A program made the translations under genes and the position numbers. From an uncultured Pseudobdellovibrionaceae bacterium (GTDB lineage Bacteria > Bdellovibrionota > FAC87 > UBA2466): DNA of 64,000 nt. A model generated the notes under the pieces. It was not told where the DNA came from, did not search any database, and saw only the letters and a list, made by a program, of their open reading frames with translations. The stretch lies in the NCBI GenBank assembly GCA_964611895.1, contig CAZTDN010000019.1:577-64576 (forward strand), written 5' to 3'. Below, piece by piece: positions 1,821-56,445 of this stretch (its first letter is position 1; the number at the start of each line of letters is the position of its first letter).

Positions 1821-2414
1821 ATGGGGATAGTTCGGGTTTTCGTTTTAGGCGCGGTTCTGGGGAGTGCAGCCTTTGGGGCTTGTACAGCACAGCAAAAACG
1901 TACGGTAGAAGCCGATGTTCGCCAGGCGTGTGCCGTGGTCAAGCGCTCGCTATATGTCCTAGAAAACTACGAAGGGTATTTGCGAAAGAACTTCGTCTAT
2001 AGTCTCGCTTTCAAGACCTATTTTGGTAATCAGAGTTTCTATAAAACTCTTTTGAAAAAAAGAATCAAAGCCTGCGAACAGGGCAAGATTTCCTACCAGT
2101 GTGTGGCCGACAACTCGGGCAACTGTGATTCGGAAAATGAGACGGATGCTTACGTATTGCACTACAAACCGTTGATTGGTTGGTACACCGTCCCTGGAAA
2201 TGTGATTCATTACTGCGACCGGTACTTTGCCTCCAATTCCATGCGCCGCCTGGATGATACGGTCCACGAGTTTGGGCGGTTGGAAGGCATTGGAGATGCG
2301 GAGACAGGAACCGATGATATCTACATGTGGGACGGGATCGTGAACCGCACCGGAATGGAACCCGGTTACTCCCAAGCCGTGAGCAGCGGTCACCCCGCAA
2401 TTGCTATTCGGTAA
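1821..2414 (+). CDS. hypothetical Cys-rich secreted protein
   Basis: N-terminal signal-peptide-like MGIVRVFVLGAVLGSAAFGA, multiple Cys, no recognisable catalytic motif. Competes with a less protein-like antisense ORF 1959..2468. Confidence 0.35.
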   Translation: MGIVRVFVLGAVLGSAAFGACTAQQKRTVEADVRQACAVVKRSLYVLENYEGYLRKNFVYSLAFKTYFGNQSFYKTLLKKRIKACEQGKISYQCVADNSGNCDSENETDAYVLHYKPLIGWYTVPGNVIHYCDRYFASNSMRRLDDTVHEFGRLEGIGDAETGTDDIYMWDGIVNRTGMEPGYSQAVSSGHPAIAIR

Positions 2415-3021
2415 TTTTGTCCGAGAGTTCGTTTGAGTCCTGCGGGCGGGGAGGGAACTCTTCAGCAAGCTTCGCGCCGATGTTCTGTATTACCGCGCAC
2501 AGCGCCGTGGCAGAATCTTTGCGTTTGATTCCGTCTACGAGTTTTGCAAGTTCATCATCCCAATACCCGGAAGGCACTCGCGAATGGATGCCTTTGTCCG
2601 CCAGTATTTCAGCGCAATTTTCAAACTCCGAAATGTAGATCAAAACGCCCGTGCGATCTTGTGTCTCGACAATCCCCTCCGCAACAAAACGTGCCAGGGC
2701 CTCCCGATGCACTTTGAATGCCCGTGTTTTGCGCGGCACAAGAAAACGCCGAACCTGCGGGGAAAAAGTTAGGCCTAGTCCAACGGCGAAACCCGCGAGC
2801 TGCCATTCCGCTAAACTAAGCGCCGAAGTGCCCCACTGAGGAAAGAGCCAATGCAATGCAGTGGCGCTTAACATCCCCGTATTGGCTAAGCACCAAGGGA
2901 CCCACGCGTACCCGCCACTCGAGCGCACTACCCGAACGACAATTTCTCCCGAAGTATTTTTTTCGGCGGTCGCGATGGCCTTTTCAATGCGGTCCTTATC
3001 CCCTTTTGAAAGCAAAGACAT
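2404..3021 (-). CDS. TPM-domain-like protein (third gene of lemA operon)
   Basis: ATG at 3019-3021 lies 3 nt after the stop of the upstream TPM gene. IEKAIATAEKNTSGEIVVRVV and GVLIYISEFENCAEILADKG resemble the TPM/DUF477 fold. Confidence 0.5.
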   Translation of the reverse strand: MSLLSKGDKDRIEKAIATAEKNTSGEIVVRVVRSSGGYAWVPWCLANTGMLSATALHWLFPQWGTSALSLAEWQLAGFAVGLGLTFSPQVRRFLVPRKTRAFKVHREALARFVAEGIVETQDRTGVLIYISEFENCAEILADKGIHSRVPSGYWDDELAKLVDGIKRKDSATALCAVIQNIGAKLAEEFPPRPQDSNELSDKITE

Positions 3022-3024
3022 GAT

Positions 3025-3762
3025 CTACCAGCTCGACGAAGAGCCGCCTCCTCCAAAGCTTCCGCCGCCACCACTAAACCCGCCTCCCCCAAAACCGCCT
3101 CCACCCCAGCCTCCGCCCCCGCCTCCGCGTCCCCAATGATCCCAGCCACTGGAGCGAGAGCCCCGCGCGTTTCGGAGTGCCCCATCAAAAAAGATCGCTG
3201 TGCCCGCGATAAAGATAAATAGCAAGATCGGGATCCACACTGGAATGACCTGTTCACGCCCCCGGGCATTTGCAAAATGAAGTTCTCTCCCTGTCTGGAC
3301 CTCAATACCCAGCAGCTGCCCTACAGCCATTACTGCTAGCGATAGCCCGTCTTCGTAGCGTTTTTTCTTAAAGTAGGGAGCGATTCCATCACTCAATATT
3401 CGCCGGGTTTGGACGTCGGTCAGTTCGCCCTCGAGGCCGTATCCGACTTCAAAGCGCATTTTGCGTTCGGCGGGCGCTACAACCAAAAGCAGTCCATTGT
3501 CGCTGCCTTTACGTCCAAGTTTCCACTCCTGCGCCACTGCGATCGAAAACGGCTCAATTTCTTCGCCTTGCAGAGACTCCGCGACCAAAATCGCCATCTG
3601 CACTTTGTGGCTTTGGTTGAGCTGAGCCAAAAGCCCTTCAACGCGGGAACGCTCAGTCGGTTTTAGCAGGGCGGCCGAGTCCACCAGCGGCCCAGACAAT
3701 GGTGGGACCGAAACAGCAATCGCTCCTAAGCAAAGCAATGCAAGCGCGAATGCGAACCTCAA
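3025..3762 (-). CDS. TPM domain protein (YgcG-like) with TM segment and Gly-rich C-terminal tail
   Basis: Signal peptide, DSAALLKPTERSRVEGLLAQLNQSHKVQMAILV, GLLLVVAPAERKMRFEVGYGLEG, a TM helix, then GGGGGGWGGGGFGGGGFSGGGGSFGGGG tail. Classic TPM_phosphatase/YgcG architecture, and overlaps lemA by 4 nt. Confidence 0.65.
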   Translation of the reverse strand: MRFAFALALLCLGAIAVSVPPLSGPLVDSAALLKPTERSRVEGLLAQLNQSHKVQMAILVAESLQGEEIEPFSIAVAQEWKLGRKGSDNGLLLVVAPAERKMRFEVGYGLEGELTDVQTRRILSDGIAPYFKKKRYEDGLSLAVMAVGQLLGIEVQTGRELHFANARGREQVIPVWIPILLFIFIAGTAIFFDGALRNARGSRSSGWDHWGRGGGGGGWGGGGFGGGGFSGGGGSFGGGGSSSSW

Positions 3763-4352
3763 AACTGAACCTTCGGCACGGACTTCGCTTCTTCACCGAT
3801 GGTAAAGTTTGCGCGGGGTTCCAGTTTCAAAATGTACCGCGCTGTTAGGTTGGTCGGAAAAAAGCGGACAGCCTTATTGTATTCCCCCACTTTGTCGATG
3901 TAGCGTTTTCGGGCCACGGTGATCCGGTTTTCCGTGCCCTCTAGCTGCGCCTGAAGATCTCTGAATCCAGTGTTTGCCTGAAGGGTAGGGTACTTCTCCA
4001 CCACGACCATTAGTCGAGAAAGTGCGCTACTCAATCCATCTTGAGCGCGCTGAAACCTACCAAATGCTTCGGGGTTGGAGAGCGCGTTTGCGTCTATTTT
4101 GGTTTGGGTGGCTTCGGCCCGCGCTTTTACCACGGCTTCTAGAGTCTCTTTTTCATGCTTCGCGTAACCTTTTACGGTGGCCACCAGGTTTGGAACCAGG
4201 TCCGTGCGCCGCTGGTATTGGTTTTCGACTTCGGACCAAGACATTTTTACGTCTTCGTCGAGGCCTTGGAGCTGATTGTAACCACAGCTGCTCAAGCTAA
4301 GAATCGTCAGCGGGAGCAGAGCTAAGAGAAAAGTTGGTTTAAATGCCTTCAC
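3759..4352 (-). CDS. lemA: LemA family lipoprotein
   Basis: LemA signature region SWSEVENQYQRRTDLVPNLVATVKGYAKHEKETLEAVVKAR...KYPTLQANTGFRDLQAQLEGTENRITVARKRYIDKVGEYN. Lipobox LSLSSCG. Probable GTG start at 4352 with a GGAG 9 nt upstream; the ORF track ATG is at 4376. Confidence 0.75.
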   Translation of the reverse strand: MKAFKPTFLLALLPLTILSLSSCGYNQLQGLDEDVKMSWSEVENQYQRRTDLVPNLVATVKGYAKHEKETLEAVVKARAEATQTKIDANALSNPEAFGRFQRAQDGLSSALSRLMVVVEKYPTLQANTGFRDLQAQLEGTENRITVARKRYIDKVGEYNKAVRFFPTNLTARYILKLEPRANFTIGEEAKSVPKVQF

Positions 4353-4480
4353 GGTAATTATCTCCAATGGGCACATTCCTGAGGCTGGCTAGCCGGAAGG
4401 TGCCGTAATTTGTCTCTCGTTTTATCGAAAGAACGGCCATGATACTACTGTCGTTTGGGTGGATTTGAAAGGTTGGCTTT

Positions 4481-4488
4481 GGTATAAT
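4481..4488 (+). promoter_or_regulatory. candidate sigma-70 extended -10 (TGgTATAAT) upstream of the Ser/Thr kinase
   Basis: Sequence tttggTATAATgc at 4478-4490, 19 nt upstream of the TTG start. No good -35, so only an extended -10 call. Confidence 0.25.
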
Positions 4489-4506: not shown

Positions 4507-6024
4507 TTGGGGGCTGTGGGGTTAGTGAGCGAAGAACAGTTGCATTCTTGCGTTCAGGCAGAAGGGTTCGAACTGCTCTCAGAAGTCGGGCGGGGGGCGT
4601 CGGCCCGTATTCTGCTCGCTCGAGAAATTTCTACGGGCGATAAAGTCTGTCTTAAACTCTTCCATCCCCGGCTTTTTCAAGAAGCCACCAGCCAGGCGCG
4701 CATACGTCGGGAAATGGAGCTCTCTTCGAAGCTTAAACACCCCCATATTCTAGCCGTGCGGCGTTTCGTTTTGGACACACCGTCGCCGTATATGGTGTTG
4801 GACTATGTTCCCGGAAAGAACCTAGAGAAGTTCCAAGCAAGCCTTCCTTATATTTTGCCCGAAGTCGCAGTGCAAATTTCGATACAGATTCTTAAAGCGC
4901 TTGAGTATTCCCATCGCAAAGGGATAGTGCACCGCGATCTTAAACCGGAAAATGTTTTGGTGCGTGAGGATGGCCAAGTGTTTGTTGCGGACTTTGGCTT
5001 AGCGAAGGGCCGCGATCACGCCGCGACAAATCTTTCCAATACTTTGGTGGGGTCAGTAGATTACATGTCTCCCGAGCAGGTAAAAGGAGACTCCGTCGGT
5101 CCGCAATCCGATCTCTTTTCGTTGGGGGCGGTGCTGTATTTCTTGACGACCGGAACTCGTCCGTTTTCGCGCGGCTCGATCGTGGCAACTCTGGAAGCTG
5201 TAAAAAACGCAGCTCCTGAGAGTCCGCTGAAGAGAAACCCGAAAATCAGTAACCGCTTGTCTGCCTTGATTCTTAAAGCGATGGCGCGGGACGTATCGGC
5301 TAGGTTTCAGAGCGCAACTGAAATGCGAACGGCGCTCGAAGGGTACTTAGCTGATACGGGCCTAAGCGAGAATACCTTCAATTTGCATGAGTGGATGGTG
5401 GATCCCTCCGCCGTAACCATGGACGCACTGGGGCGATGCGTGGAAACACTGACCGCTCGCGCGGAAAAGTTACTGGCGCAAAGGGAGTGGGATGCCTTTA
5501 CCGAAGTGCAATCGCACTTGAGTATCAAAGCCCCGGAAAGCGAATCGCTCAGGCGATTATCCACACTTTACCGAAGTACTCGTCGAGCCAAAACTCGTCC
5601 GGTCTTGCGGTGGTCCTTGGTTGCGGTCTGGTTGTTAGTCATTGTGGGAGCAGCTGTTTTTTACTGGCCGAAAAACCCACAACCCCAGAGTCTTCCATCT
5701 CCTGTTGTCGCAAATCCAGCCCCCGTCGAAGTCGCGCCAGCGGTTCCCGCTGAAACCATCATTCCCGATCCTAAACCTGCTCCCCACAAGTCGCCCGCGG
5801 CTGCCAAACTAAAGGCACCTTCCGCGGGTGCCGGGACGGTTTGGTTTCGTCTCCCCCAAGGCACTGAGGTTTATTGGAATGGGTTTCCGGTCGACCCGGA
5901 AAAACCGCTCTATAACCAGAAGTTCGGTTTGCACGATCTTAAAATGATCCGAGAGGGTTTTGATCCAATCACGGCCAAAGTTGAAGTGTCCGCCTCAAGG
6001 CCAACCATTATCAAGGTGAACTAA
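4507..6024 (+). CDS. Ser/Thr protein kinase (Hanks-type) with C-terminal TM helix and Pro-rich extracytoplasmic tail
   Basis: HRDLKPENVLV catalytic loop, DFGLAK, SPEQ. TM segment WSLVAVWLLVIVGAAVFYW followed by PQPQSLPSPVVANPAPVEVAPAVP. Start is TTG at 4507 (GTG 4522 is an alternative). Confidence 0.85.
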   Translation: MGAVGLVSEEQLHSCVQAEGFELLSEVGRGASARILLAREISTGDKVCLKLFHPRLFQEATSQARIRREMELSSKLKHPHILAVRRFVLDTPSPYMVLDYVPGKNLEKFQASLPYILPEVAVQISIQILKALEYSHRKGIVHRDLKPENVLVREDGQVFVADFGLAKGRDHAATNLSNTLVGSVDYMSPEQVKGDSVGPQSDLFSLGAVLYFLTTGTRPFSRGSIVATLEAVKNAAPESPLKRNPKISNRLSALILKAMARDVSARFQSATEMRTALEGYLADTGLSENTFNLHEWMVDPSAVTMDALGRCVETLTARAEKLLAQREWDAFTEVQSHLSIKAPESESLRRLSTLYRSTRRAKTRPVLRWSLVAVWLLVIVGAAVFYWPKNPQPQSLPSPVVANPAPVEVAPAVPAETIIPDPKPAPHKSPAAAKLKAPSAGAGTVWFRLPQGTEVYWNGFPVDPEKPLYNQKFGLHDLKMIREGFDPITAKVEVSASRPTIIKVN

Positions 6025-6026
6025 TC

Positions 6027-7829
6027 ATGATGTATCTCAAACTTTCCAATCAGGCGCCGCTTGGGATCGATAAAGCGGTTTTTACTGTGGGGTGGGGAAG
6101 GGCATTTGACGCTTCACTGGGTGATGGACCCGAGACCCTCTGTTTTTCCATTCAAAAAGAAGGCGAAACCTACCATCTCATTCCGGGCAGCGAACGCCTG
6201 CGCCTTAATGCGCGGATTGTTTCCGGAGTGGAACCTGTGCAGAGTTTGGATCGGATAAGCTGGCGGGAAGAAGCGGCGGTTTTGCTCACCGACATTCAGG
6301 TCGGAGAGACCGGCGAAAAACGAGACACTAGTCTAGAATGTCTGCGCATTTTGGAACAGTTGTCCATCCACTTGGAAAACTCCGAATCTCTGACGGGGGC
6401 GCTTCGCCAAGCGCTGAATGCGATGGCGAACGTAGCGGGAGCGCAGGGCGGAAATCTAGTGTCCGAAGTCGACCCCGGAAGTGGTTGGGAGTTGCTTGCA
6501 AGTTTTGGTTTGTCGTCAGGCGGCACTGCAGAAGAAAATCCCCGCAAGACCTTGCTCAGCCACACGGCGGTAAACGAAGCGATTCGTTCCCGGAAGCCAG
6601 TTTATGTCGAGAGCATCATCGGCCATGACTGGGCTGATCAGGCATCCATCTTAGGGGCCCGCATTTTTTCCCTAGCTTGCCTCCCTCTGGTTGTCGGAGA
6701 GCGTGTCTTTGGGTGTGTGTACTTGTTTACCAGGACGCCAGGAAAATCTATCCATCGGGATTCGCTCGCATCACTTTCCATTTTGGGCACACAGGTTGCC
6801 TTGCTTTTGGCTACCCGAGCTCAGTTGAATCGCGAGCGACAACGCAATCGGGAATTCAAAAACAAGTCGGGCGAAAAGAGCTTTGTGTACAACCGCGCCT
6901 TGGAAAATAGTCCGATGAAAGCTTTGGACCTGCGCATCTCAAAGCTTGCCCCAGCAGATCTAAACTTACTGGTCCTCGGAGAGACGGGTAGCGGCAAAGA
7001 GGTGATTGCTCGAGAACTCCATTTGCGGGGTGTCCGAAACAATGGGCCTTTTGTCGCTGTGAATTGCGGTGCCATTCCGGCAAGCCTGATTGAGTCTACG
7101 TTATTTGGATTTGTGAAAGGCTCCTTTACCGGAGCGACTCGCGATCAGGATGGGAAGTTTGTACAGGCAAACGGGGGGACGTTGTTTCTGGACGAGATTG
7201 GGGATCTCCCTTTGGATCTCCAAGTAAAGCTCTTGCGGGTTTTACAAGAGCGGAGCGTGGAACCGGTGGGCGGTTCCAAAGCAGTGCCAGTAGACTTTAA
7301 ACTGATTGCTGCCACTCACCAGGATTTGGAAGGGCTGGTCAAGAGTGGAAAGTTTCGACAGGATCTTTATTACCGGTTAAATGGCGCGTCTCTAGTGATT
7401 CCCCCTTTGCGTGAACGGACAGGCGATATTTTGCTTTTAGCGGAGTATTTTTTAGGCTTTTCGGGGATGGATCGCCGTTTTTCAATAGATGCAAAGCAGC
7501 GTCTATTACAGCATTCGTGGCCAGGAAATGTTCGGGAGCTGGAGCAAGTCGTTTGTCGGGCTGCAGCGCTTGCTGAGGGGGAGGAAATTTCGCCCGAGGA
7601 CCTGGAAATGGGAGTTTTGGCCACTTCAGGAAACGCCTCCAACTCTTTGGATATGGCCGATCTTCCTTCAGGATTGAGGGAAGCCCAAGAAACATTCACT
7701 CGGGAATTTGTTAGAGCTGCTCTGGAACAAAGTGGTGGCATGCGATCTAAAGCAGCCGCTCGGCTGGGAATTTCAGAGCGCACATTGTACCGCATTCTCT
7801 CCACTGCATCGTCTGACACTGCGATCTGA
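6027..7829 (+). CDS. sigma-54-dependent transcriptional activator with putative FHA-like N-terminus (central domain not classified)
   Basis: AAA+ sigma-54 interaction domain motifs GETGSGKEVIARELH, ESTLFGFVKGSFTGA, GGTLFLDEIGDL, and a C-terminal HTH (AARLGISERTLYRIL). An N-terminal ~90 aa beta-rich module (FTVGWGRAFDASLGD...LNARIVSG) resembles FHA; the segment between it and the AAA+ core is unclassified. Starts 2 nt after the kinase stop. Confidence 0.85.
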   Translation: MMYLKLSNQAPLGIDKAVFTVGWGRAFDASLGDGPETLCFSIQKEGETYHLIPGSERLRLNARIVSGVEPVQSLDRISWREEAAVLLTDIQVGETGEKRDTSLECLRILEQLSIHLENSESLTGALRQALNAMANVAGAQGGNLVSEVDPGSGWELLASFGLSSGGTAEENPRKTLLSHTAVNEAIRSRKPVYVESIIGHDWADQASILGARIFSLACLPLVVGERVFGCVYLFTRTPGKSIHRDSLASLSILGTQVALLLATRAQLNRERQRNREFKNKSGEKSFVYNRALENSPMKALDLRISKLAPADLNLLVLGETGSGKEVIARELHLRGVRNNGPFVAVNCGAIPASLIESTLFGFVKGSFTGATRDQDGKFVQANGGTLFLDEIGDLPLDLQVKLLRVLQERSVEPVGGSKAVPVDFKLIAATHQDLEGLVKSGKFRQDLYYRLNGASLVIPPLRERTGDILLLAEYFLGFSGMDRRFSIDAKQRLLQHSWPGNVRELEQVVCRAAALAEGEEISPEDLEMGVLATSGNASNSLDMADLPSGLREAQETFTREFVRAALEQSGGMRSKAAARLGISERTLYRILSTASSDTAI

Positions 7830-7879
7830 CAGTCCTGGCAGAAAGCGCTTTATTTGCGGAGCGGGGTGCCTGGTATTGC

Positions 7880-7895
7880 TGGCATCGACGTTGCA
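7880..7895 (+). promoter_or_regulatory. sigma-54 (-24/-12) promoter TGGCAT-N5-TTGCA
   Basis: ctGGcatcgacgttGCa has GG at 7881-82 and GC at 7893-94 (exact GG-N10-GC). It sits 50 nt after the sigma-54 activator stop and ~42 nt upstream of ATG 7938. Confidence 0.5.
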
Positions 7896-7937
7896 ATCGT
7901 TTTGTGTACCCAAAGTGGGCAAGAGGAGATTTCGAGT

Positions 7938-8741
7938 ATGAATATGCGGACTATTAGCATGTATTTGACCCTGACTGTTTTGCTATTTGCGATCATGACG
8001 GCTTCGGCTTTTGCGGATACGTACAATTTCTATTTTGATAAGAAAAAGAAAAGCCCGGATAATGCCGAAGCGATCGCTCCTCCACAGGCTGAGAATTCAA
8101 TAGAGGATTCGGCGGACTCTTACTCGAGACCGCTGCCTAAAGAGCCGCAGCCAGTCATCATTAACAACAACATTTCGACCCCGCGATCACCCGAGTATCT
8201 GGAGCCCACACCTAATGTCCCCACGCAAACGAGTGTTTCCTCCTATTCCTCTACGCCGCCGTATTCAGTGGAATCCGAAAAGCGGCTTAAGTGGAGTATC
8301 GGAACGTCCTTTTTGGTATGGGCGGGTCGAGAAAGGGTAGCGGATTTAGCCGATCCCAGCACCTACACAGACATTACCGCGAATCAAATTCTCCAGGGCG
8401 TGGGTGCTGCCGCTGCTGTTTCCCTTGGGTATCGAATACTGCCGGGATTGGGGGTCAGCGGTTATGTCGGAAATGCGAGTCGTGGGAGGGCGTTTGTGGG
8501 CGCTGATGTTGAGTGGTGGCCGCTGCGTTTGGATGTGGGTCGATTTGACCTGCTCGAACTTGCGCTTCTAGGTGGGGCATCCGATACGATTGCGTTTTCT
8601 GGGTACGGCTCTCCCGCTGTCTTGCCTCACTTGGGTACGCGACTGAACTTGAATCTTGGGCCGAGCTTTACACTGACGGCTTCGGTTCGGTTGAACCGCC
8701 AGGCGAGTATTGGTGAATTGGGAGTGGGAATCCATCTCTAA
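7938..8741 (+). CDS. hypothetical secreted/outer-membrane protein (low-complexity N-half, Gly/Ser/aromatic-rich C-half; beta-barrel-like guess)
   Basis: Signal peptide MNMRTISMYLTLTVLLFAIMTASAFA at the internal ATG 7938; the ORF-track start 7854 would overlap the sigma-54 promoter. C-half has alternating hydrophobic pattern, no conserved motif. Confidence 0.45.
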   Translation: MNMRTISMYLTLTVLLFAIMTASAFADTYNFYFDKKKKSPDNAEAIAPPQAENSIEDSADSYSRPLPKEPQPVIINNNISTPRSPEYLEPTPNVPTQTSVSSYSSTPPYSVESEKRLKWSIGTSFLVWAGRERVADLADPSTYTDITANQILQGVGAAAAVSLGYRILPGLGVSGYVGNASRGRAFVGADVEWWPLRLDVGRFDLLELALLGGASDTIAFSGYGSPAVLPHLGTRLNLNLGPSFTLTASVRLNRQASIGELGVGIHL

Positions 8742-8792
8742 TCCTAAATCGGTCCTAACACGAAACGAACAGTCGAGTGCGACAATGGGAGC

Positions 8793-9551
8793 ATGTTCTT
8801 GAGTGACTTCCATGTCCACTCGACGTTTAGCGACGGGAAACTGACGATTTCTCAACTCGTGGATATGTACGGCAGACAGGGGTTTGGAGCGATAGCCATC
8901 ACGGACCATCTGTGCGAAGAACGCACCGTCATCGGAAAAGCCGCCGCCTACATTGGGTGCTCGCTCACCCGGAGCAACTACGCACAGTACCTCTCCACCA
9001 TTCAGCAAGAAGCAGAACGAGCGTGGGAGCTGTATCAAATGGTGGTTCTGCCGGGGTACGAATTGACGAAGAATAGCCTTTCCAATCACCGTTCCGCCCA
9101 TGTCCTTGGACTGGGTGTAACGCAATACCTCCCTGCGGATGGAGATATTGTGGCCCTCGCTCGGCATATTCGTGCGCAAGGAGCGGTGGCGGTTGCAGCG
9201 CACCCCGTCTGGACTCGGGTGGTGGAAAGGCAGACCTATTACCTTTGGGATAGGCGAGATGAGTTAGAGGCAGAGTTTGACGCGTGGGAAGTCGCGAGCG
9301 GTCCTTATTGGTTTGAGGAGGTTGCTGCGACTCGATTGCCGAAGCTTGCGACCTCTGATTTGCACCAACCCAGGCAATTCACTTCTTGGAAAACCGTTTT
9401 GGATTGCGAGAAACACCCCGAAGCGATCTTGGATGCGATTCGCAGACAGGAGGTCAGCTTTCGCTTTTTCCAGGCGCCCGTTTCTTTTTTCAGGGACGTT
9501 GCTGCTGGGGTTGCTTCTAACACTTGGAGATCAGAGGCTAAAACAGCCTAG
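8793..9551 (+). CDS. PHP-domain metal-dependent phosphoesterase
   Basis: N-terminal FLSDFHVHSTFSDGKLTISQLVDMYGRQGFGAIAITDHL is the canonical PHP motif (HxH, D, H). Confidence 0.7.
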   Translation: MFLSDFHVHSTFSDGKLTISQLVDMYGRQGFGAIAITDHLCEERTVIGKAAAYIGCSLTRSNYAQYLSTIQQEAERAWELYQMVVLPGYELTKNSLSNHRSAHVLGLGVTQYLPADGDIVALARHIRAQGAVAVAAHPVWTRVVERQTYYLWDRRDELEAEFDAWEVASGPYWFEEVAATRLPKLATSDLHQPRQFTSWKTVLDCEKHPEAILDAIRRQEVSFRFFQAPVSFFRDVAAGVASNTWRSEAKTA

Positions 9552-9610: not shown

Positions 9611-11713
9611 ATGCAAAAGATTCGGCAACTGCCGACGCTACCTTCTTTGCTCGCCCAACCAGGCATGCCCTTGATTCATAGGGATATTAGCTGGCTGCAT
9701 TTCAACGAACGGGTTTTGGACGAAGCTCGCCCATCGAGTGGCAATCCCTTGATTGAACGCGCGAAGTTTCTTGCGATCAGTAGCAGCAATTTAGACGAGT
9801 TTTTTATGATCCGTGTGGCTTCCATGAGCCGCAAACTTCGATCTCAAAACCGGATTTCTAAATGGAGGTCTGCCCATTCTCCACATCTGATAGGAGTGTG
9901 GAATTCGGTTTTGGAAACCGTGGCTAAATTTGGAGTAAAACAAACCGAAGTCTTAGAAATGCTGGTCCCAGAACTCAGGGCCCATGGCATCCATCTAGTG
10001 ACCAGCTCCTTGGACAATGAACTCACCGCAAACCTCGGTCGCGAAGTTTTTGAAACAGAGGTTCTGCCAAAACTAGCTCCGCCGGAGACTTTTGAACTCT
10101 CCAAGCTTTTAACGTTGCCTAACCTGAAGACGGCCGTGATTTTTCCGGACAAGCTGTGGTTTGCGGTGCCCCCGGGTCTGCCCTTCTTGCTCTCCGCTGT
10201 GCGCGGAAATGATAGGTATTATTTTTTCTTAGATGACTTGCTGGAAAGCTTCATGGGGCCCACCTTCGGTTTGCAAGGCAGGGTGGGCCTGGTGCGATTG
10301 ACTCGCGATGCGGACATTTCCGTGGATATCGCCGAAGAAGATCCTGAGTCTTTGCCCGACGTGGTTTTATCCCGACTCCTGTCTCGCGAAAAAGGCGTGC
10401 CGATGCGTCTGCAGTACCGCGGGCATCTCACTGACGATTTGCTTACACAGATGGCGGACGTGCTTAAGCTGCGTCCTCAGCAGGTATTGCCTGCAGCCGG
10501 AAGCTTGGTGCTGCAATCCCTTTGGGCGCTAGTAAAAGAAATGTCCCTGGATCGTGCGTCCGATCCCCAGCTTGTTTACGCTCCCTTGCATGCCCCACTC
10601 CCCGCATTTTTTGGCGATCGCTCCAAGATCTTTGAAAAGCTGAAGTCCCAGGATTACCTGCTTCATCACCCCTACGATCCTTTCGATGCATTTGTGGAGT
10701 TTACGCGCGCTGCAGCAGAGGACCCTCAAGTCGAGATGTTGGAACAGACGATCTATCGGATGGATGATGCCTCTCCCATCGTTGGCGTACTAAAAGAAGC
10801 CGCGTCCCGTGGAAAGAAAGTCCGAGTCATCATTGAGCTGCGTGCGCGATTTGACGAATATAATAATCTGCGCCTGGCGGATGAGTTGCGCAAGGGAGGG
10901 GTTGAAGTCGCCTACGGCTTTGGTGCCCTCAAGCTTCATGCGAAGGTAACCTTGGTCACCCGCAACGAAGGCGGGATTTCTCGACGTTATACCCACCTAT
11001 CCACGGGAAATTACAATGCCACGACAGCACGTCAGTATACCGATCTGGCGGTGCTGACCTCGAACGAGGAAATTGGAAACGATGCGCGCAAATTCCTCGA
11101 TGCTGCATGGGCAGGCAAACTCCCCAGCGCTTTCAAACGTCTGTTATCCGCGCCCACGGGGTTGCACCGCAAGCTTGTCAATTTGATCGAAGGCGAAATT
11201 CAGGCAGCCAAAAATGGCCTCAAGACCCGTATCGTCGCAAAAGTGAATGCTTTGGTGGACGAGAGTGTGATTCAAGCTCTGTATACTGCTTCACAAGCGG
11301 GGGTAAAAATCGATCTAATCGTCCGTGGTGCTTGTTCATTAATACCGGGTGTGCCCGGTCTTAGTGAGAATATTCAGGTCGTCAGTGTGGTAGATCGGTT
11401 CCTGGAACACAGTCGATTGTATTATTTCGAGAGCGCGGGAGTGTTGTATTTGTCGAGTGCTGATTGCATGCCGAGAAATTTTTTTTCGAGGCTGGAGTTA
11501 GCATTCCCAATCTTAGATCCAAAAATTTACCGCTATATTGAGCAAGTGGTGATTCCTGCCTATTTGAGAGACAACTCTAAGGCGCGGGAATTGACGCCTC
11601 AAGGTACTTGGAAAAAGCGCGTACGTCGATCCTCTGCGGAAAAAGCGCGTTCTCAAATGGTTTTTGAGAAGCTGGCGCGGGAGGCCTATCAAGGGACTAC
11701 TCTCGAAAGATGA
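9611..11713 (+). CDS. ppk: polyphosphate kinase 1
   Basis: ISWLHFNERVLDEA N-terminus, two PLD-like HxK motifs (KLHAKVTLV; RFLEHSRLYYFE), and PPK1 length. ATG 9665 (MPLIHRD...) is an alternative start. Confidence 0.9.
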   Translation: MQKIRQLPTLPSLLAQPGMPLIHRDISWLHFNERVLDEARPSSGNPLIERAKFLAISSSNLDEFFMIRVASMSRKLRSQNRISKWRSAHSPHLIGVWNSVLETVAKFGVKQTEVLEMLVPELRAHGIHLVTSSLDNELTANLGREVFETEVLPKLAPPETFELSKLLTLPNLKTAVIFPDKLWFAVPPGLPFLLSAVRGNDRYYFFLDDLLESFMGPTFGLQGRVGLVRLTRDADISVDIAEEDPESLPDVVLSRLLSREKGVPMRLQYRGHLTDDLLTQMADVLKLRPQQVLPAAGSLVLQSLWALVKEMSLDRASDPQLVYAPLHAPLPAFFGDRSKIFEKLKSQDYLLHHPYDPFDAFVEFTRAAAEDPQVEMLEQTIYRMDDASPIVGVLKEAASRGKKVRVIIELRARFDEYNNLRLADELRKGGVEVAYGFGALKLHAKVTLVTRNEGGISRRYTHLSTGNYNATTARQYTDLAVLTSNEEIGNDARKFLDAAWAGKLPSAFKRLLSAPTGLHRKLVNLIEGEIQAAKNGLKTRIVAKVNALVDESVIQALYTASQAGVKIDLIVRGACSLIPGVPGLSENIQVVSVVDRFLEHSRLYYFESAGVLYLSSADCMPRNFFSRLELAFPILDPKIYRYIEQVVIPAYLRDNSKARELTPQGTWKKRVRRSSAEKARSQMVFEKLAREAYQGTTLER

Positions 11714-51475: not shown

Positions 51476-52828
51476 GTGAAATTGCGGCTGCTTGTTTTGT
51501 TTCAAATTGTCTGTGTCGCTTGGAACAGTTTTGCCGAGAAACCGATTGTCGATGGGCCAGCGACACGGGTGCATTTCCTGCTGGTGGCGGACATCGAGGC
51601 GACCAACATTGGAAAGAGCACCGTACGCGACGTCGAAAGATTTGAGTCCCTGATCCGAGGCTACTTTGAAGATGAAAACCATCCCGAGCGGCGCAGCCAG
51701 TTCACTCTGACCAAAATGGGGTTCAGCGGCACCGTTTCCCCCCAGGATGTGATTGCTTATTACAAAGCGGTACAAATGGTTTCTAGCGTGAACGAAGCCA
51801 TTGTTTTTTATTACTCGGGCCATGGCGATTCGAATGCGCGGGGTGGGCAAAACTTTACCATGAGTGGAGGGGTATTGCCTCGGCCCGACTTTCGATTGGC
51901 TCTGGAAGGTTTGGGGGTGAAATCGCTCATCATTTTATCGGATGCGTGTAGCCCCGAATCGCGAGAGACGTTGGCCCGAACCCAGCCAAAGTCGTTTACC
52001 GGAGACTATTTAAATCGAAAAGCACCGGCGATGGCCTTGAGTGAAGAACAGCAGTTTATTTTTCATGATCTCTTTGTGCGGGGACAGGGGACGGTAGATA
52101 TAAACTCTTCGAGTTATGGGGAATATTCCTGGTCGAGCGAAAATTTGGGTGGCCTGTTTACCAGGAGATTATTTGATCTGATTTTGAATAGTGAGCTGGA
52201 GAAGTTGGATTCGAATAGCGATGAGTTTCTTTCTTGGGAGGAGTTTTTCCCGAGGCTGAAAAGAGACGTGTCGGATTATTTTCAAACGATGAAAGAGTCT
52301 GCGCCGGATGATGCGCCGATCAAGGAGTCTAAAGCTCAGACTCCCTATGCATTTACCTATCCAAGCTACCGCGATTTAGCTGGTTCGGTAGCAGGCAGTC
52401 CTCTGCAACCGGGGGTCTTGCAGCTGGTTAGCTATTCGCAGGCCTATGACTACCGTGTTTCGGGGTTTACGGGGCATTTGGTCATGTTTCAGCTTGTGAC
52501 GAGTCAGCCGGTTGCCAAGATAGAAGCTTTGGATGTGGCGATCCGATTCCGTCAGCAGGACGGCACTTTTTTGCCTAGTACAGCCGTGTCGCCCGCTTTC
52601 AAAGCTGTAGATGGAACGGTGGCGGCTTACGCTACCATTGTGATACTGGGCAAAAACTTCAACCGGGGCACGTTTTTCGTTCCCAACCTGGCAATTTTTC
52701 CCAATCCATTGCCGAACGGGACCCAAGTCACGCTCACCCCCGTTCTGCAGATTTTCACTCGGGGGCCACTGCGCCTGATCGCGCAGCACGATTTGCGAGA
52801 CATCGTCTTTGTTCAAAATGATCCGTAG
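51476..52828 (+). CDS. secreted caspase-like (peptidase C14) protein with EF-hand-like Ca-binding loop and C-terminal beta-rich domain
   Basis: Signal peptide. Caspase His-Cys dyad in correct order and spacing (IVFYYSGHGDS...LIILSDACSPE). DSNSDEFLSWEE matches EF-hand loop positions 1, 3, 5, 12. Confidence 0.6.
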   Translation: MKLRLLVLFQIVCVAWNSFAEKPIVDGPATRVHFLLVADIEATNIGKSTVRDVERFESLIRGYFEDENHPERRSQFTLTKMGFSGTVSPQDVIAYYKAVQMVSSVNEAIVFYYSGHGDSNARGGQNFTMSGGVLPRPDFRLALEGLGVKSLIILSDACSPESRETLARTQPKSFTGDYLNRKAPAMALSEEQQFIFHDLFVRGQGTVDINSSSYGEYSWSSENLGGLFTRRLFDLILNSELEKLDSNSDEFLSWEEFFPRLKRDVSDYFQTMKESAPDDAPIKESKAQTPYAFTYPSYRDLAGSVAGSPLQPGVLQLVSYSQAYDYRVSGFTGHLVMFQLVTSQPVAKIEALDVAIRFRQQDGTFLPSTAVSPAFKAVDGTVAAYATIVILGKNFNRGTFFVPNLAIFPNPLPNGTQVTLTPVLQIFTRGPLRLIAQHDLRDIVFVQNDP

Positions 52829-52877
52829 ACGTGGCAAAGCGGCCTGTGGTAACCGTCTGACTTGATTCCGTTTATGG

Positions 52878-52953
52878 GCGGGCGTAGCTCAGTTGGTAGA
52901 GCATCAGCTTCCCAAGCTGAGGGCCGAGGGTTCGAACCCCTTCGCCCGCTCCA
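52878..52953 (+). tRNA. tRNA-Gly (anticodon CCC), 76 nt with encoded CCA
   Basis: Hand-folded cloverleaf. Acceptor GCGGGCG/CGCCCGC, D-arm GCTC-AGTTGGTA-GAGC, anticodon stem TCAGC/GCTGA with loop TTCCCAA, T-arm GAGGG-TTCGAAC-CCCTT, discriminator T, CCA. Confidence 0.9.
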
Positions 52954-53019
52954 AAGTCATTTGCCGTTCTTTAGAAACATGCTAATACCCCCCCCTCGCG
53001 AACTCACTGAGGGAAAGCC

Positions 53020-54279
53020 ATGCGAAATCTGTTCTTTGGTCTCATAACGACGGTGGTTTTGAGTAGCTGCAATACACGGCTAATTTTGCAGGGGGCCGGG
53101 GCGCCATCCTCAGGAGAGAGGTTGCCCGGCAAATACGCCCCCGCTACGCCCGATACAGAAGAAAATACAGATCCACTCAAGCTTGTTTCGATTTATATGT
53201 CGGGATGGTCGGCTTGCGGTCTAACTCCGGAAAAGCGGACCTACTGCTGGGGAGCGCGTCCTCCAGGGTGGCGAGACGCGGGCTACGATCTACCTCCTTA
53301 TGTCCTCGCAAGTGAGTGGCGATTTGAGTCCTTGGCCAGTACCGGCGATGCTGCTTGCGGCCTAGACATGAACGGCAAGGCCTTTTGCTGGGGAGAAAAC
53401 GAATTCGGAGCACTGGGAATTGGTAAGATAGGCAGAGAGTATAGCTCTCTCTCCCCCAAAGAAGTCAGTGGAGGGCTGCTTTTTTCGACGATAAAGGGAA
53501 GCGGCAGTCACTTTTGTGGGCTCACTCTAAATGACCAAACAGCCTACTGTTGGGGTGCTAACACTGACGGCCGCCTCGGTGTAGGCGATGAACTACCTCG
53601 TGGAACCCCCACCGCCGTCGCAGGAGGAATGCGTTTCAAAACCCTCGATGCTGGTACTTTTACTTGTGGAATAGCTTTTGATGATCGGCTTTATTGTTGG
53701 GGAAATACGGCCTACATTACTGTTCGATTTGGTTCGTTGGCTTCTGAGTATATAAGCAACGTTCCAATGTTGTTTGAAATGCCAGAGAGGCTAGTCTCTA
53801 TATCCGTGGGAAGTGCTAGCGCGTGTGGATTGACCGAGGAAGGTAAAGCCTATTGCTGGGGATATGGGGTGCACGGTCAACTCGGGTCAGGTATTAATGA
53901 CGTGACCAAGATTCCTCAGCCTGTAAGCGGGGGTTTGCGTTTCTCAGACATTCAACTCGGCAGCTATGCAAGCTGGGGCCTCACTTTGGACGGAAAAGTT
54001 TATCTCTGGGGAATGAATATACTCGGCGACCTCAACCCGGCCATGAGTGCGAATGAAATTACGAATGTACCTATTGAGGTTCCGACCGCGCTGCGGTTCT
54101 CTCGTATTTCGGGAGATGCAGCTGGAGTGTGCGGCCTTGAGAAGGACACCGGTTTGCTCTATTGCTGGGGCAATAGCTATGACTCAAAGCTATTTGTTAA
54201 GCAAGCAGCGGCACCTGGCAGTCAAGTAGGAACGCACGTTCCGACGCTGGTTCGCATTCGAAAAGAACTTTTGAATTAA
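53020..54279 (+). CDS. RCC1-repeat (beta-propeller) lipoprotein
   Basis: Lipobox VLSSCN. Six or more repeats of the CGLTxxGxxYCWGxNxxGxLG pattern (e.g. CGLTPEKRTYCWGA; CGLDMNGKAFCWGENEFGALGIG; CGLTLNDQTAYCWGANTDGRLGVGD; CGLTEEGKAYCWGYGVHGQLGSG). Confidence 0.7.
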   Translation: MRNLFFGLITTVVLSSCNTRLILQGAGAPSSGERLPGKYAPATPDTEENTDPLKLVSIYMSGWSACGLTPEKRTYCWGARPPGWRDAGYDLPPYVLASEWRFESLASTGDAACGLDMNGKAFCWGENEFGALGIGKIGREYSSLSPKEVSGGLLFSTIKGSGSHFCGLTLNDQTAYCWGANTDGRLGVGDELPRGTPTAVAGGMRFKTLDAGTFTCGIAFDDRLYCWGNTAYITVRFGSLASEYISNVPMLFEMPERLVSISVGSASACGLTEEGKAYCWGYGVHGQLGSGINDVTKIPQPVSGGLRFSDIQLGSYASWGLTLDGKVYLWGMNILGDLNPAMSANEITNVPIEVPTALRFSRISGDAAGVCGLEKDTGLLYCWGNSYDSKLFVKQAAAPGSQVGTHVPTLVRIRKELLN

Positions 54280-54295
54280 AGCCGCTCGCGATACC

Positions 54296-54775
54296 TCAAG
54301 CCGCTTTTTGAACGAGATCGATGACTTTGCCCTTGAGCGAAGCTTTCGCTTTTACAAATGCGTTAGCGATGTAGTCCAACTCCTCCTTGGTAAAGGCTTT
54401 TTTCATTTTGGGAAACATTTCCATCTCTTCTTCTTTTACATGATGCTCGACGATCTCTCTCAAGGTGGTAATTCGTGCGATAAACTCATGGGCCTCTGTG
54501 GGGGTTGCGTCGAGCTTGCTCAGTAAAAACTTGATCAATGAGTGTTCCTCCGTACCTTCGTAGCCAATTTCCAGAGTGCGTTCGGTGACCCTGAGGGAAG
54601 GGTAGAGTGCTTTTTCTTCTGCTTCGGCATGATGCGTGAGTTCGGTGCGGAGCGCATTGTAAAGGCGCTCTCGAGTCTGAGTAGACTTTTCAGTAGTTCT
54701 TTCTATCCGGGTGAAGAGCTCACCTACTTTTCTATGATCTGTTTTAATCAAATTGAAAATATTTTCATTCTTCAT
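54296..54775 (-). CDS. hemerythrin-like (HHE cation-binding) domain protein
   Basis: DHRKVGELF...HHAEAEEKALYP...EHH..EE..MFP pattern of His/Glu ligands of hemerythrin-like domains. 159 aa. Confidence 0.7.
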   Translation of the reverse strand: MKNENIFNLIKTDHRKVGELFTRIERTTEKSTQTRERLYNALRTELTHHAEAEEKALYPSLRVTERTLEIGYEGTEEHSLIKFLLSKLDATPTEAHEFIARITTLREIVEHHVKEEEMEMFPKMKKAFTKEELDYIANAFVKAKASLKGKVIDLVQKAA

Positions 54776-55025: not shown

Positions 55026-55715
55026 TCAGTGAGCTGCGTGAGGATAAGAGAAGCTGTGCGCATTTGGGCCCAGATCTAACAGGGTTTCCACTTCAAAGCG
55101 GAGTGTGGTTTGCTTTGGAAACTGGAACTCGGATCGGCGTAACCCGCGCTCGATCAGCAGCGTTTGGACGTTACGGTAGGGATGGTTCAACCAGGCAAGC
55201 CTCTTTTCCAGGCTCTGCGGCAAAAAAGTTTCAAAGTCAGCTTGAGGTTGAGTGGGCATTTCCGTTGCAGCGAATTGGAGCTCGTTTCGCACCGTACTGA
55301 ACGGGTACTCCTCTACTCGAGAGGATAAACCCGCCTCCACGGGATTGCGGAACACGTACTTATATGCGTGCGAGTAATAGATACCGTACGTGATCAGCGA
55401 CCAGTGGTACCTGGCTCCGAAAATCCGATTGATTCGTCCGGAAACGCGACCGATTTCCTTGCTTACTTCCCTGAGAAAGTAGTTCATGCACTCTCCCAAA
55501 TCCGCCTCGGGAGTCGATGCGATTAAGTGAAAGTGATTCGACATCAAGACAAAGGAGTGGATGTTCCAGCCGTAGCGATTGCGTACGATTTCGAGTATTT
55601 CTTTGAAGATTCTCCAAACGACATCGGTTGGTAAATAGAATGGCTCGCGGTTATTGCAGCGGGCAGTGACATGATAGGGAAACTGTTTTGTTCGATACAA
55701 GGGTTTTCTTGGCAT
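55026..55715 (-). CDS. REP-associated tyrosine transposase (RAYT) / IS200-like Y1 transposase family protein
   Basis: HuH motif SNHFHLIAS and catalytic-Tyr region YKYVFRNPVEAGL (Y..Y..NPV characteristic of RAYTs/COG1943). Flanked by REP-like palindromes. Confidence 0.75.
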   Translation of the reverse strand: MPRKPLYRTKQFPYHVTARCNNREPFYLPTDVVWRIFKEILEIVRNRYGWNIHSFVLMSNHFHLIASTPEADLGECMNYFLREVSKEIGRVSGRINRIFGARYHWSLITYGIYYSHAYKYVFRNPVEAGLSSRVEEYPFSTVRNELQFAATEMPTQPQADFETFLPQSLEKRLAWLNHPYRNVQTLLIERGLRRSEFQFPKQTTLRFEVETLLDLGPNAHSFSYPHAAH

Positions 55716-55752
55716 ATGCGGTCTTTAGCAGAAGCCATGCCAACTCGAGGTA

Positions 55753-55796
55753 GGTACGCGGTACCTTTTCAACAAAAGGTACCGCGTACCGGATTA
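55753..55796. repeat. REP-like perfect hairpin (17-bp arms GGTACGCGGTACCTTTT / AAAAGGTACCGCGTACC, 4-nt loop) followed by CGGAT
   Basis: Read directly: ggtacgcggtacctttt caac aaaaggtaccgcgtacc at 55753-55790, 38 nt upstream of the RAYT start codon. Confidence 0.65.
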
Positions 55797-56216
55797 AAAG
55801 GATGCTCGGCAGGCGTTGAATAGCCGATCGTCTACTAGGTACTGTGTTTTGTAATAGGCCGCCCAATACTGGTTTAGGTTGGCCAGGTAGTTTTTGTAGC
55901 TGGCGTCCTTACGCTGTTTCAGCGGGGCGATCTGGCAGTCGAGCTTTGCCCATCCGGTAGCAAAGTTTTGATAAATCGCATTGCTCGTAATCCAGAGCTC
56001 TAGGTATCGGCCTTGGTCGGCTGGCTGAAAAACATGGATGCCTTCACTAAATTGATAAACAGCCAGGTATTGAGTCGAGTCGCCATGCACTTGTAACGGA
56101 ATAGCGATGTGTGAACCGTCGACATAGTAGGTGAGTCCATTGAGGGTTGCCGGCGCCCACTGGGCCGAAGCAAGGGTGGTCAAGGCGGCAAAAGCCAAAG
56201 TGAAAAGTCTTTTCAT
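55794..56216 (-). CDS. small secreted protein bracketed by REP elements
   Basis: Signal peptide MKRLFTLAFAALTTLASA from internal ATG 56216. ~140 aa, Tyr/Trp-rich. No homology recognised. Confidence 0.45.
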   Translation of the reverse strand: MKRLFTLAFAALTTLASAQWAPATLNGLTYYVDGSHIAIPLQVHGDSTQYLAVYQFSEGIHVFQPADQGRYLELWITSNAIYQNFATGWAKLDCQIAPLKQRKDASYKNYLANLNQYWAAYYKTQYLVDDRLFNACRASF

Positions 56217-56372
56217 TTTCGTTTCTCCTGGTGAATAAATCGGTGGGTTGCCACCGCGGTACACCGGCACCTTGTGCAACGTCGATGCCAAGTCTCAAGG
56301 GCAGAAAGCGCAGCCAAAACCCCGGAGAATCCTTAGTTTTGTATCAAAGCTGAGATAGTCGTTCTCAAAAAA

Positions 56373-56445
56373 GGTACGCGCTACCTTTTCAAGAAAGGTA
56401 CGCGCTACCTTTTTCACGAAAGTAACCGCGTACCGGATAACGCGG
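56373..56445. repeat. REP-like cluster: two direct copies of AAAGGTACGCGCTACCTTTT plus an inverted partial copy GTAACCGCGTACCGGATAACGCGG
   Basis: 56373-56389 and 56397-56414 are near-identical units (each a small hairpin). 56422-56445 shares GCGTACCGGAT with the 55778-55796 copy. Confidence 0.55.

Follow-up and report, generated by a model that had tools for sequence, protein, structure and literature searches.

Enhancer-binding proteins (EBPs) of Myxococcus xanthus that carry an FHA domain were reportedly proposed by Jelsbak, Givskov and Kaiser in 2005 to link Ser/Thr kinases to sigma-54 transcription. Because the kinases and activators of Myxococcus are many and unlinked, partners are hard to assign there. 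A pair of a kinase and an FHA-containing regulator is PknH-EmbR of Mycobacterium tuberculosis (cited in PMC6213207). The FHA domains of the type VIIb secretion proteins EssC and YukB are without the residues that hold phosphothreonine (pThr) (PMC4925161), and the YukB/EssC FHA domain binds the pseudokinase domain of YukC/EssB independently of phosphorylation (PMC9600267). Here we describe a locus on contig CAZTDN010000019.1 of an uncultured Pseudobdellovibrionaceae bacterium, of which a stretch of 64,000 nucleotides ("the window") was analysed. A gene for a Hanks-type Ser/Thr kinase is followed in it by a gene for a sigma-54 EBP ("the activator") with an N-terminal FHA fold, a central GAF domain and an AAA+ core, and then by a candidate enhancer, a sigma-54 promoter and a target gene for a secreted protein.

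We read this arrangement as a dedicated, self-contained and lineage-specific cassette, in which the kinase would act through the FHA-fold/GAF activator on sigma-54 transcription and the FHA fold would serve as a phospho-independent coupling module. We give this reading a probability of roughly 0.55. It is carried by the conservation of the gene pair, by the state of the pThr pocket and by a palindrome that recurs in front of the sigma-54 promoters. The coordinates of all features are collected in Table 1.

The kinase-activator pair and its conservation

The kinase gene ends with a TAA stop (6022-6024), which is followed by the two letters TC and then by the ATG of the activator at 6027, an exact gap of 2 nt. 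As far as this junction can be read, the two genes are translationally coupled. Together with the Pfam domains, the junction bears out the original prediction of a 600-aa sigma-54 activator starting two nucleotides after the kinase stop: Sigma54_activat (PF00158) matched residues 294-455 with E=7e-65 and 218 bits, the AAA lid was also matched, and a Fis-type HTH_8 domain was found at the C-terminus (E=2e-8). Walker A (GETGSGKE at 318), the GSFTGA loop (at 365) and Walker B (DEIG at 389) are all present; the GSFTGA variant is common to 4 family members, while 31 carry GAFTGA. The activator reached no NCBIfam equivalog cut-off (NorR, 309.8 vs 476; NifA, 301.5 vs 528.85), and no paralogue of either kinase or activator was found elsewhere in the window.

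A genome scan with an alignment of the activator N-terminus and GAF domain yielded 15 loci, to which a protein look-up added one more; the loci are referred to below by L numbers. Twelve of the 15 are labelled as metagenome-assembled genomes (MAGs) of Bdellovibrionota, Pseudobdellovibrionaceae, Bacteriovoracaceae or Oligoflexia, two carry the old label "Deltaproteobacteria" and one is labelled Pseudomonadota. In every locus that has upstream sequence (13/13), a full-length kinase orthologue lies directly upstream of the activator. These orthologues are 36-63% identical, juxtamembrane and periplasmic parts included. Between the kinase stop and the activator start, 13 of the 14 pairs (the window included) have a gap of -4 to +7 nt, and the remaining pair has one of 35 nt. 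In the distant relative L017, whose FHA-GAF-EBP is positive for Pfam FHA, a Pkinase gene is found two genes upstream of the activator. The expected co-occurrence of the two genes in relatives was thus observed, whereas the assumption that such a pairing is uncommon has to be revised: an exhaustive profile search of cluster representatives gave 1038 hits, with 33 at E<=1e-30, mostly of about 600 aa and with the layout of N-terminus, GAF and AAA+, and within the lineage the pair forms a fixed cassette, typical of a family with some 30 or more cluster representatives.

The neighbouring genes were considered as further members of the cassette. Only the two closest relatives share the LemA and TPM genes on the upstream side and the PHP and PPK1 genes on the downstream side, and these genes were rejected as members for this reason; by the same token, the pairing of kinase and activator is not mere synteny. 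The LemA-TPM-TPM operon is kept only in L002 and L003. The PHP/PPK1 arrangement downstream of the target is kept only in L003, with insertions there; in the genome studied here, transcription from the sigma-54 promoter may run on into these two genes.

The kinase domain itself was matched by Pkinase (PF00069) at residues 22-268 (4570-5310), with E=1.8e-49 and 168.9 bits against a cut-off of 31.7. The catalytic motifs are GRGASA at 28, K50, E69, HRDLKPENVLV at 142, DFGLAK at 162 and SPE at 188. Among 12 kinase orthologues the VAIK lysine K50 is kept in at least 90%, and the alphaC glutamate E69, HRD, DFG and the P-E of the APE motif (SPE in the window) are invariant. On these grounds the product of the open reading frame (ORF) 4507-6024 is regarded as an active kinase and not a pseudokinase; by its motifs it is catalytically intact, and phosphotransfer is predicted. 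The only Kyte-Doolittle window above 1.6 is a hydrophobic segment at residues 366-387 (maximum 2.25), and a hydrophobic segment occupies the equivalent position in 12/12 orthologues. Pfam, motifs and hydropathy thus agree with the receptor-type kinase that had been proposed from HRDLKPENVLV, DFGLAK, a transmembrane helix and a Pro-rich outside tail.

What the original prediction overlooked in the kinase is its weakly PEGA-like periplasmic C-terminal domain. This domain is kept in 12/12 orthologues, with G459, G474, H476, I488, P499 and I502 invariant. Weak Pfam matches to PEGA (PF08308) were obtained in 8/12 orthologues (best E=0.0054), and the window copy gave no Pfam PEGA match.

The start of the kinase gene is ambiguous between TTG 4507, GTG 4516 and GTG 4525. 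Orthologue alignments start to agree near VSEE, the position of GTG 4525. The protein collection contains the activator and the target protein but not the exact 505-aa product, so that the annotated start may differ. A promoter scan of the window gave no sigma-54-like site upstream of the kinase. The kinase-activator operon appears to be transcribed from a sigma-70-type extended -10 element, TGGTATAAT, which the consensus scan missed because its -35 element is poor.

The region between the N-terminus and the AAA+ core of the activator had been left unclassified; a Pfam check identified it as a GAF domain (residues 120-261; GAF_2 with E=3e-13 and 50.4 bits vs 28.6, GAF with 28.2 vs 22.4). GAF matches were found in 53 of the 59 members of the wider activator family. 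The domain has an unusual set of residues invariant in the family (E195, G199-H200, C218, S178-x-T180, S207 and S215), which could form a metal, redox or ligand site or serve as phospho-acceptors.

This domain is the basis of the strongest competing explanation, which we nevertheless regard as rather improbable: a GAF ligand would mainly control the activator, as in NifA, NorR and FhlA, the FHA fold would self-associate or serve an unrelated partner, and the kinase would be co-transcribed but act elsewhere, or in the envelope process of the target. Regulation of GAF-containing EBPs without kinases is well established. The good GAF scores, the invariant E195, H200, C218 and S178, which suggest a ligand or metal site, and the degenerate FHA pocket described below all fit such a scheme. 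Against it speaks the near-absolute adjacency of the two genes, whose stop and start codons overlap or nearly touch in relatives of as little as about 35% identity; codons kept this close are typical of physically interacting partners. Furthermore, the FHA fold is found in every family member, the known partners of this class of FHA fold are kinases or kinase folds, and the conserved juxtamembrane region of the kinase, about 90 aa long, could be a docking surface.

The FHA fold and its phosphothreonine pocket

Of the FHA-like N-terminus that had been predicted, the fold stood and the match to the Pfam model did not. Pfam FHA (PF00498) gave no match on residues 1-121 of the activator, even at E<=10. 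The N-terminus does have the eleven-strand beta-sandwich of the FHA fold, and its closest structural neighbours include the pThr readers EmbR, DgcB, FhaA and GarA. Pocket and conservation counts were made with a profile of 37 N-terminal domains (the close family), and the wider alignment of FHA-GAF-EBPs comprises the 59 members mentioned above. Compared with PDB sequences, the 37-domain profile gave 27 matches, 26 of which are FHA domains; the top ones were EssC (5fwh, E=4e-7), KIF13B (5e-6) and YukB (9qks, E=3e-5). Binding by the FHA domain of KIF13B is phospho-independent. In the close family, Pfam FHA was weakly matched in 4/37 (best 0.0019) and Yop-YscD_cpl in 3/37; in the wider alignment the corresponding numbers are 15/59 and 17/59.

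For the pThr pocket, the family was mapped onto a sequence of GarA that matches the published numbering (R81, S95, H98, N117) and reproduces the 16.7-bit score and the length of PDB chain 2kfu_A. Position 23, equivalent to GarA Arg81 (the R of G-R), is Trp in the window and S, T, V, G or E in the family, with Arg in 2/37. Ser95 lies within a GarA insertion, and the family loop is one residue shorter and has no Ser column. Position 39, equivalent to His98, is Cys in the window, Leu in 18/37 and His in 1/37. The G-S-L-N-G-T loop between beta6 and beta7 of GarA, which holds N117 in its Ser/Thr-x-Asn motif, is replaced by a P-G-x-x-K turn that is two residues shorter; the conserved Asn61 of the family aligns with a second, structural V-N-G turn and not with N117. 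What the family conserves in this domain is a set of its own: T20, D28, F40-T/S41, P53-G54 and C74-D75-R76-I-x-W79. The canonical pocket of Bdellovibrio DgcB consists of S75, R76, T96 and H78 (PMC6733907), and none of these positions is retained in the FHA fold of the activator. From these alignments we infer that the fold has lost every residue with which canonical FHA domains hold pThr. With Trp at the Arg81 position, the Ser95 column gone, His98 exchanged for Cys or Leu and the N117 loop replaced, the earlier idea that this domain reads phospho-Thr could not be upheld.

One could still picture a working pThr reader that binds the autophosphorylated kinase or a kinase substrate and thereby activates the AAA+ core. 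The FHA fold is unambiguous, true pThr readers are among its structural neighbours, the adjacent kinase has Thr residues in its activation loop, canonical G-R occurs in two family members, and the Pfam FHA matches, weak or real, of the close and wider family would be in keeping with such a function. We consider it unlikely all the same: the window domain has no Pfam FHA match, the phosphate-contacting Arg, Ser and His and the loop Ser/Thr-x-Asn are missing or deleted and unconserved throughout the family, and the nearest sequence relatives with structures are KIF13B and the pThr-blind EssC and YukB (PMC4925161, PMC9600267). Without pThr residues, the FHA fold of the activator most likely acts as a phospho-independent docking or receiver module for the cognate kinase, and it is as such a module that we include it in the proposed cassette.

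Enhancer, promoter and target gene

The stretch that separates activator and target gene holds a sigma-54 promoter without mismatch to the consensus. The pattern alone is not above chance, as 8 sites were found in the 64 kb at <=1 mismatch where 6.7 are expected. In L002, L003, L006, L009, L010, L011 and L015 an equivalent promoter separates the activator from the gene that follows it; in L005 it is found after an inserted unrelated gene and before the target.

Between the activator stop and the promoter we found a candidate enhancer, or upstream activating sequence (UAS), which the original prediction had overlooked. Its motif, TGACAR-N3-TGKCAS (extended consensus CTGACAG-N2-CTGKCAG), has a single site in the window, CTGACAGTCCTGGCAG; several loci have CAGAnnTGGCAG immediately behind the activator stop. 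In 183 kb of fetched relative loci the motif occurs in 11 places, compared with about 0.17 expected. Sites were found in L002, L003, L006, L008, L009, L010, L011 (two), L015 (two) and L016, and degenerate copies in L005, L007 and L017. The distance from the UAS to the -24 element is 53-88 nt at every site except that of L016, where it is 142 nt. In L006 and L009 the UAS lies 32-81 nt beyond the activator stop codon, and the degenerate copy of L005 lies 65 nt before the relocated promoter. In the distant L017, CGACAGAAATGTCCG is found 68 nt before the promoter TGGCACGTTTGCTGCT. The UAS is not a coding artefact, because it lies beyond the stop in L006 and L009, moves with the promoter in L005 and recurs before further genes. 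We infer that the palindrome CTGACAG-N2-CTGKCAG is the candidate DNA site of the activator.

These sites also bear on a further alternative, that there is no signalling link at all, that the three genes are neighbours by descent and that promoter and palindrome are chance matches. The promoter pattern is indeed not enriched in the window, and all relatives belong to one phylum, so that shared ancestry inflates the apparent conservation. However, the palindrome stands at equivalent places 12 times, where about 0.17 are expected, and it follows the promoter in loci with a changed gene order, and the cassette persists to about 35% identity when the flanking genes are kept only in the two closest relatives. 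We therefore consider this alternative very improbable.

The recurrence before further genes was seen in three loci, where a second UAS copy and a second sigma-54 promoter precede additional genes for secreted proteins (L011 6016-6629, L007 10643-11222 and L008 10380-11685). The second targets of L011 and L007 are small lipoproteins homologous to each other (30% identity, E=7e-20), and that of L008 is a longer lipoprotein; no homologue of these lipoproteins was found in the window. In L017, 1.6 kb past the activator (7731-9341) are without a called gene and contain a palindrome-like site at 7848 and a good sigma-54 promoter at 7916; there may be an unannotated target gene in this interval.

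The sigma-54 16-mer of the cassette occurs a second time in the window, on the minus strand. It was rejected as a co-member of the regulon, since the repeats in front of it are of another type (AAGGTA-N5-TACCTT) and the window has no second copy of the CTGACAG palindrome. This second promoter would drive a gene for a 140-aa signal-peptide protein without a Pfam match. Two tandem AAGGTACGCGCTACCTT palindromes lie upstream of it, and no activator gene is adjacent. Two degenerate copies of the AAGGTACGCGCTACCTT type and a weaker sigma-54-like site precede an ORF resembling IS200/Y1 transposases.

The target protein has a signal peptide (ending ASAFA|D) and, as its N-terminal motif, DTYNFYFDKKKK; a Pro/Ser/Thr linker of low complexity leads to a C-terminal region of about 130 aa. 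In the family, the mature N-terminus is A/D-TYNF(Y/F)F(D/N), and the C-terminus is alternately hydrophobic with a terminal F, L or I; the ending is probably like that of an outer-membrane beta-barrel. Neither Pfam, NCBIfam nor PDB sequences gave a match to the target protein, and its database relatives are all named "hypothetical protein". With a seven-member family hidden Markov model, a homologue was detected directly after the activator in 11 relatives (L003, L005-L011, L013, L015 and L016). The truncated copy of L002 shows DTYNFFFDK, so that the family follows the activator in 12 of the 13 relatives with downstream sequence, L012 alone being without it. A second target paralogue is present in some relatives. 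Promoter and conserved target family together sustain the prediction of a sigma-54 gene downstream of the activator, the expression of which is putative.

Table 1. Features of the cassette and of other parts of the window (positions within the 64,000-nt window)
Feature	Position	Strand	Description
Possible extended -10 promoter of the kinase-activator operon, TGGTATAAT	4480-4488	+	read from sequence
Hanks-type Ser/Thr kinase gene	4507-6024	+	505 aa from TTG; Pfam Pkinase match
Juxtamembrane cytoplasmic region of kinase	~5314-5586	+	~90 aa, helical, conserved; specific to this kinase family
Transmembrane helix of kinase	5611-5667 (residues 369-387)	+	single; basic stretch on N-terminal (cytoplasmic) side
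Pro-rich periplasmic linker of kinase	5668-5832	+	C-terminal to transmembrane helix
Periplasmic C-terminal domain of kinase	5833-6021 (residues 443-505)	+	~60 aa; beta-rich, PEGA-like
Sigma-54 enhancer-binding protein (activator)	6027-7829	+	600 aa; Pfam domains, AAA+ motifs
Activator, N-terminal FHA-fold domain	6027-6302 (residues 1-92)	+	pThr pocket absent by sequence
Activator, GAF	6384-6809	+	
Activator, AAA+	6906-7391	+	
Activator, lid	7410-7637	+	
Activator, HTH	7701-7793	+	
Candidate enhancer (UAS), CTGACAGTCCTGGCAG	7826-7841	+	overlaps activator TGA stop; 53 nt before -24 element
Sigma-54 promoter, TGGCATCGACGTTGCA	7880-7895	+	-24 TGGCAT / -12 TTGCA; zero-mismatch consensus match; upstream of ATG 7938
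Target gene, secreted TYNFYF protein	7938-8741	+	267 aa; ribosome-binding site AAGAGGAGA at 7921-7929
LemA-TPM-TPM operon	2404-4376	-	divergent, upstream of kinase
PHP-domain phosphoesterase	8793-9551	+	short gap after target gene
Polyphosphate kinase PPK1	9611-11713	+	short gap
Caspase-like Peptidase_C14	51476-52828		
RCC1-repeat protein	53020-54279		
Hemerythrin	54296-54775	-	
IS200/Y1-transposase-like ORF	55026-55715	-	
Signal-peptide protein	55794-56216	-	140 aa; no Pfam match
Second perfect sigma-54 promoter, same 16-mer TGGCATCGACGTTGCA	56275-56290	-	with 56371-56411 and 55727-55792

The Peptidase_C14, RCC1 and hemerythrin genes form a stretch (51476-54775) of proteins with "eukaryote-like" domains that is unrelated to the cassette.

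Proposed mechanism and comparison with known systems

In the mechanism that we propose, the periplasmic domain of the kinase would sense a signal from the envelope. The FHA fold would dock the activator on its cognate membrane kinase independently of phosphorylation, by analogy with YukB and YukC. The kinase could then phosphorylate the N-terminal regulatory half of the activator, for which T/S41, S178, T180, S207, S215, T235 and T237 are conserved Ser/Thr acceptor candidates, and so alter how the AAA+ ring is repressed or assembled; the effect may have either sign, activation or inhibition. The GAF domain, with its invariant E195, H200 and C218, would add a second input, probably a small molecule or a redox signal. 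The activator would bind the palindrome that overlaps or closely follows the stop codon of its own gene, where the AAA+ ring would assemble and open the sigma-54 promoter about 55 nt further on. The output would be the secreted, probably outer-membrane TYNFYF protein, and in relatives also small lipoproteins.

A more specific version, which we offer tentatively, would make the pThr-blind FHA fold the dedicated "receiver" of a one-kinase/one-activator system, with constitutive docking, a phospho-acceptor in the fold or presented by it, gating by GAF and a new outer-membrane family as the output. If true, predatory or Bdellovibrio-like bacteria would have a counterpart of a two-component system that is built on a Ser/Thr kinase.

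Several observations weigh against the cassette and its phospho-independent coupling as we read them. Each arrow of the mechanism is deduced from gene order, conservation of cis-elements and fold. All relatives are MAGs, and there is no cultured model organism among those identified. The loss of the canonical residues is no proof that phosphopeptide binding is lost; the FHA fold of the window has an arginine, R25, two residues downstream of the Arg position, and the family conserves R76 and W79 near the peptide-binding face of the fold. Most loci have one UAS copy, while many EBPs use two or more, and the 53-88 nt between UAS and -24 element are on the short side. Finally, in L007, L008 and L013 the target starts within a few nucleotides of the activator stop, which leaves no room for a promoter; the target is thus co-transcribed with the activator there.

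The cassette offers a compact test bed of moderate interest, and there is no surprise in it in principle. Since kinase, activator, candidate enhancer, promoter and target lie within 4.3 kb and are kept together across the phylum, each arrow can be tested with a few constructs. It also adds an FHA fold that has lost its pThr pocket beside a kinase that is active by its motifs, which bears on how frequent phospho-independent kinase-binding FHA modules are. In Bdellovibrio-like bacteria, both the TYNFYF family and the lipoproteins associated with it are components of the envelope that await characterisation.

Literature searches did not find a description of the cassette. The idea of FHA-EBPs is already known from Myxococcus; the present case is set apart by the pocket-less FHA fold, the GAF domain and the conserved, cis-encoded cassette in Bdellovibrionota. 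As in the FHA-EBPs of M. xanthus, the sigma-54 activator carries an N-terminal FHA domain (here at the level of the fold) instead of a receiver. The likeness seen is one of architecture, and it has its limits: here the pThr pocket is lost, a GAF domain stands between FHA and AAA+, the lineage is Bdellovibrionota and not Myxococcota, and kinase, enhancer site, promoter and target are encoded in cis. EmbR, the partner of PknH, is a SARP/OmpR-type activator of sigma-70 transcription with a C-terminal, pThr-competent FHA domain, in contrast to the sigma-54 AAA+ protein with an N-terminal, pocket-less fold described here.

The activator shares with EssC and YukB an FHA fold without pThr residues, and these proteins bind the Hanks-kinase fold of EssB and YukC in a phospho-independent manner. 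Their partner, however, is an inactive pseudokinase within a secretion machine, whereas the cassette has a kinase with a complete set of catalytic residues, and transcription as its output. DgcB of Bdellovibrio bacteriovorus, an FHA-GGDEF protein, differs in having the consensus pocket, with which it binds its own phosphorylated tail, in its output, which is the synthesis of cyclic di-GMP, and in having no adjacent kinase gene. With NifA, NorR and FhlA the activator has the GAF-AAA+-HTH_8 core in common, as is also seen from its partial, below-cut-off matches to the NorR and NifA models of NCBIfam, but those proteins have neither an FHA fold nor a partner Ser/Thr kinase.

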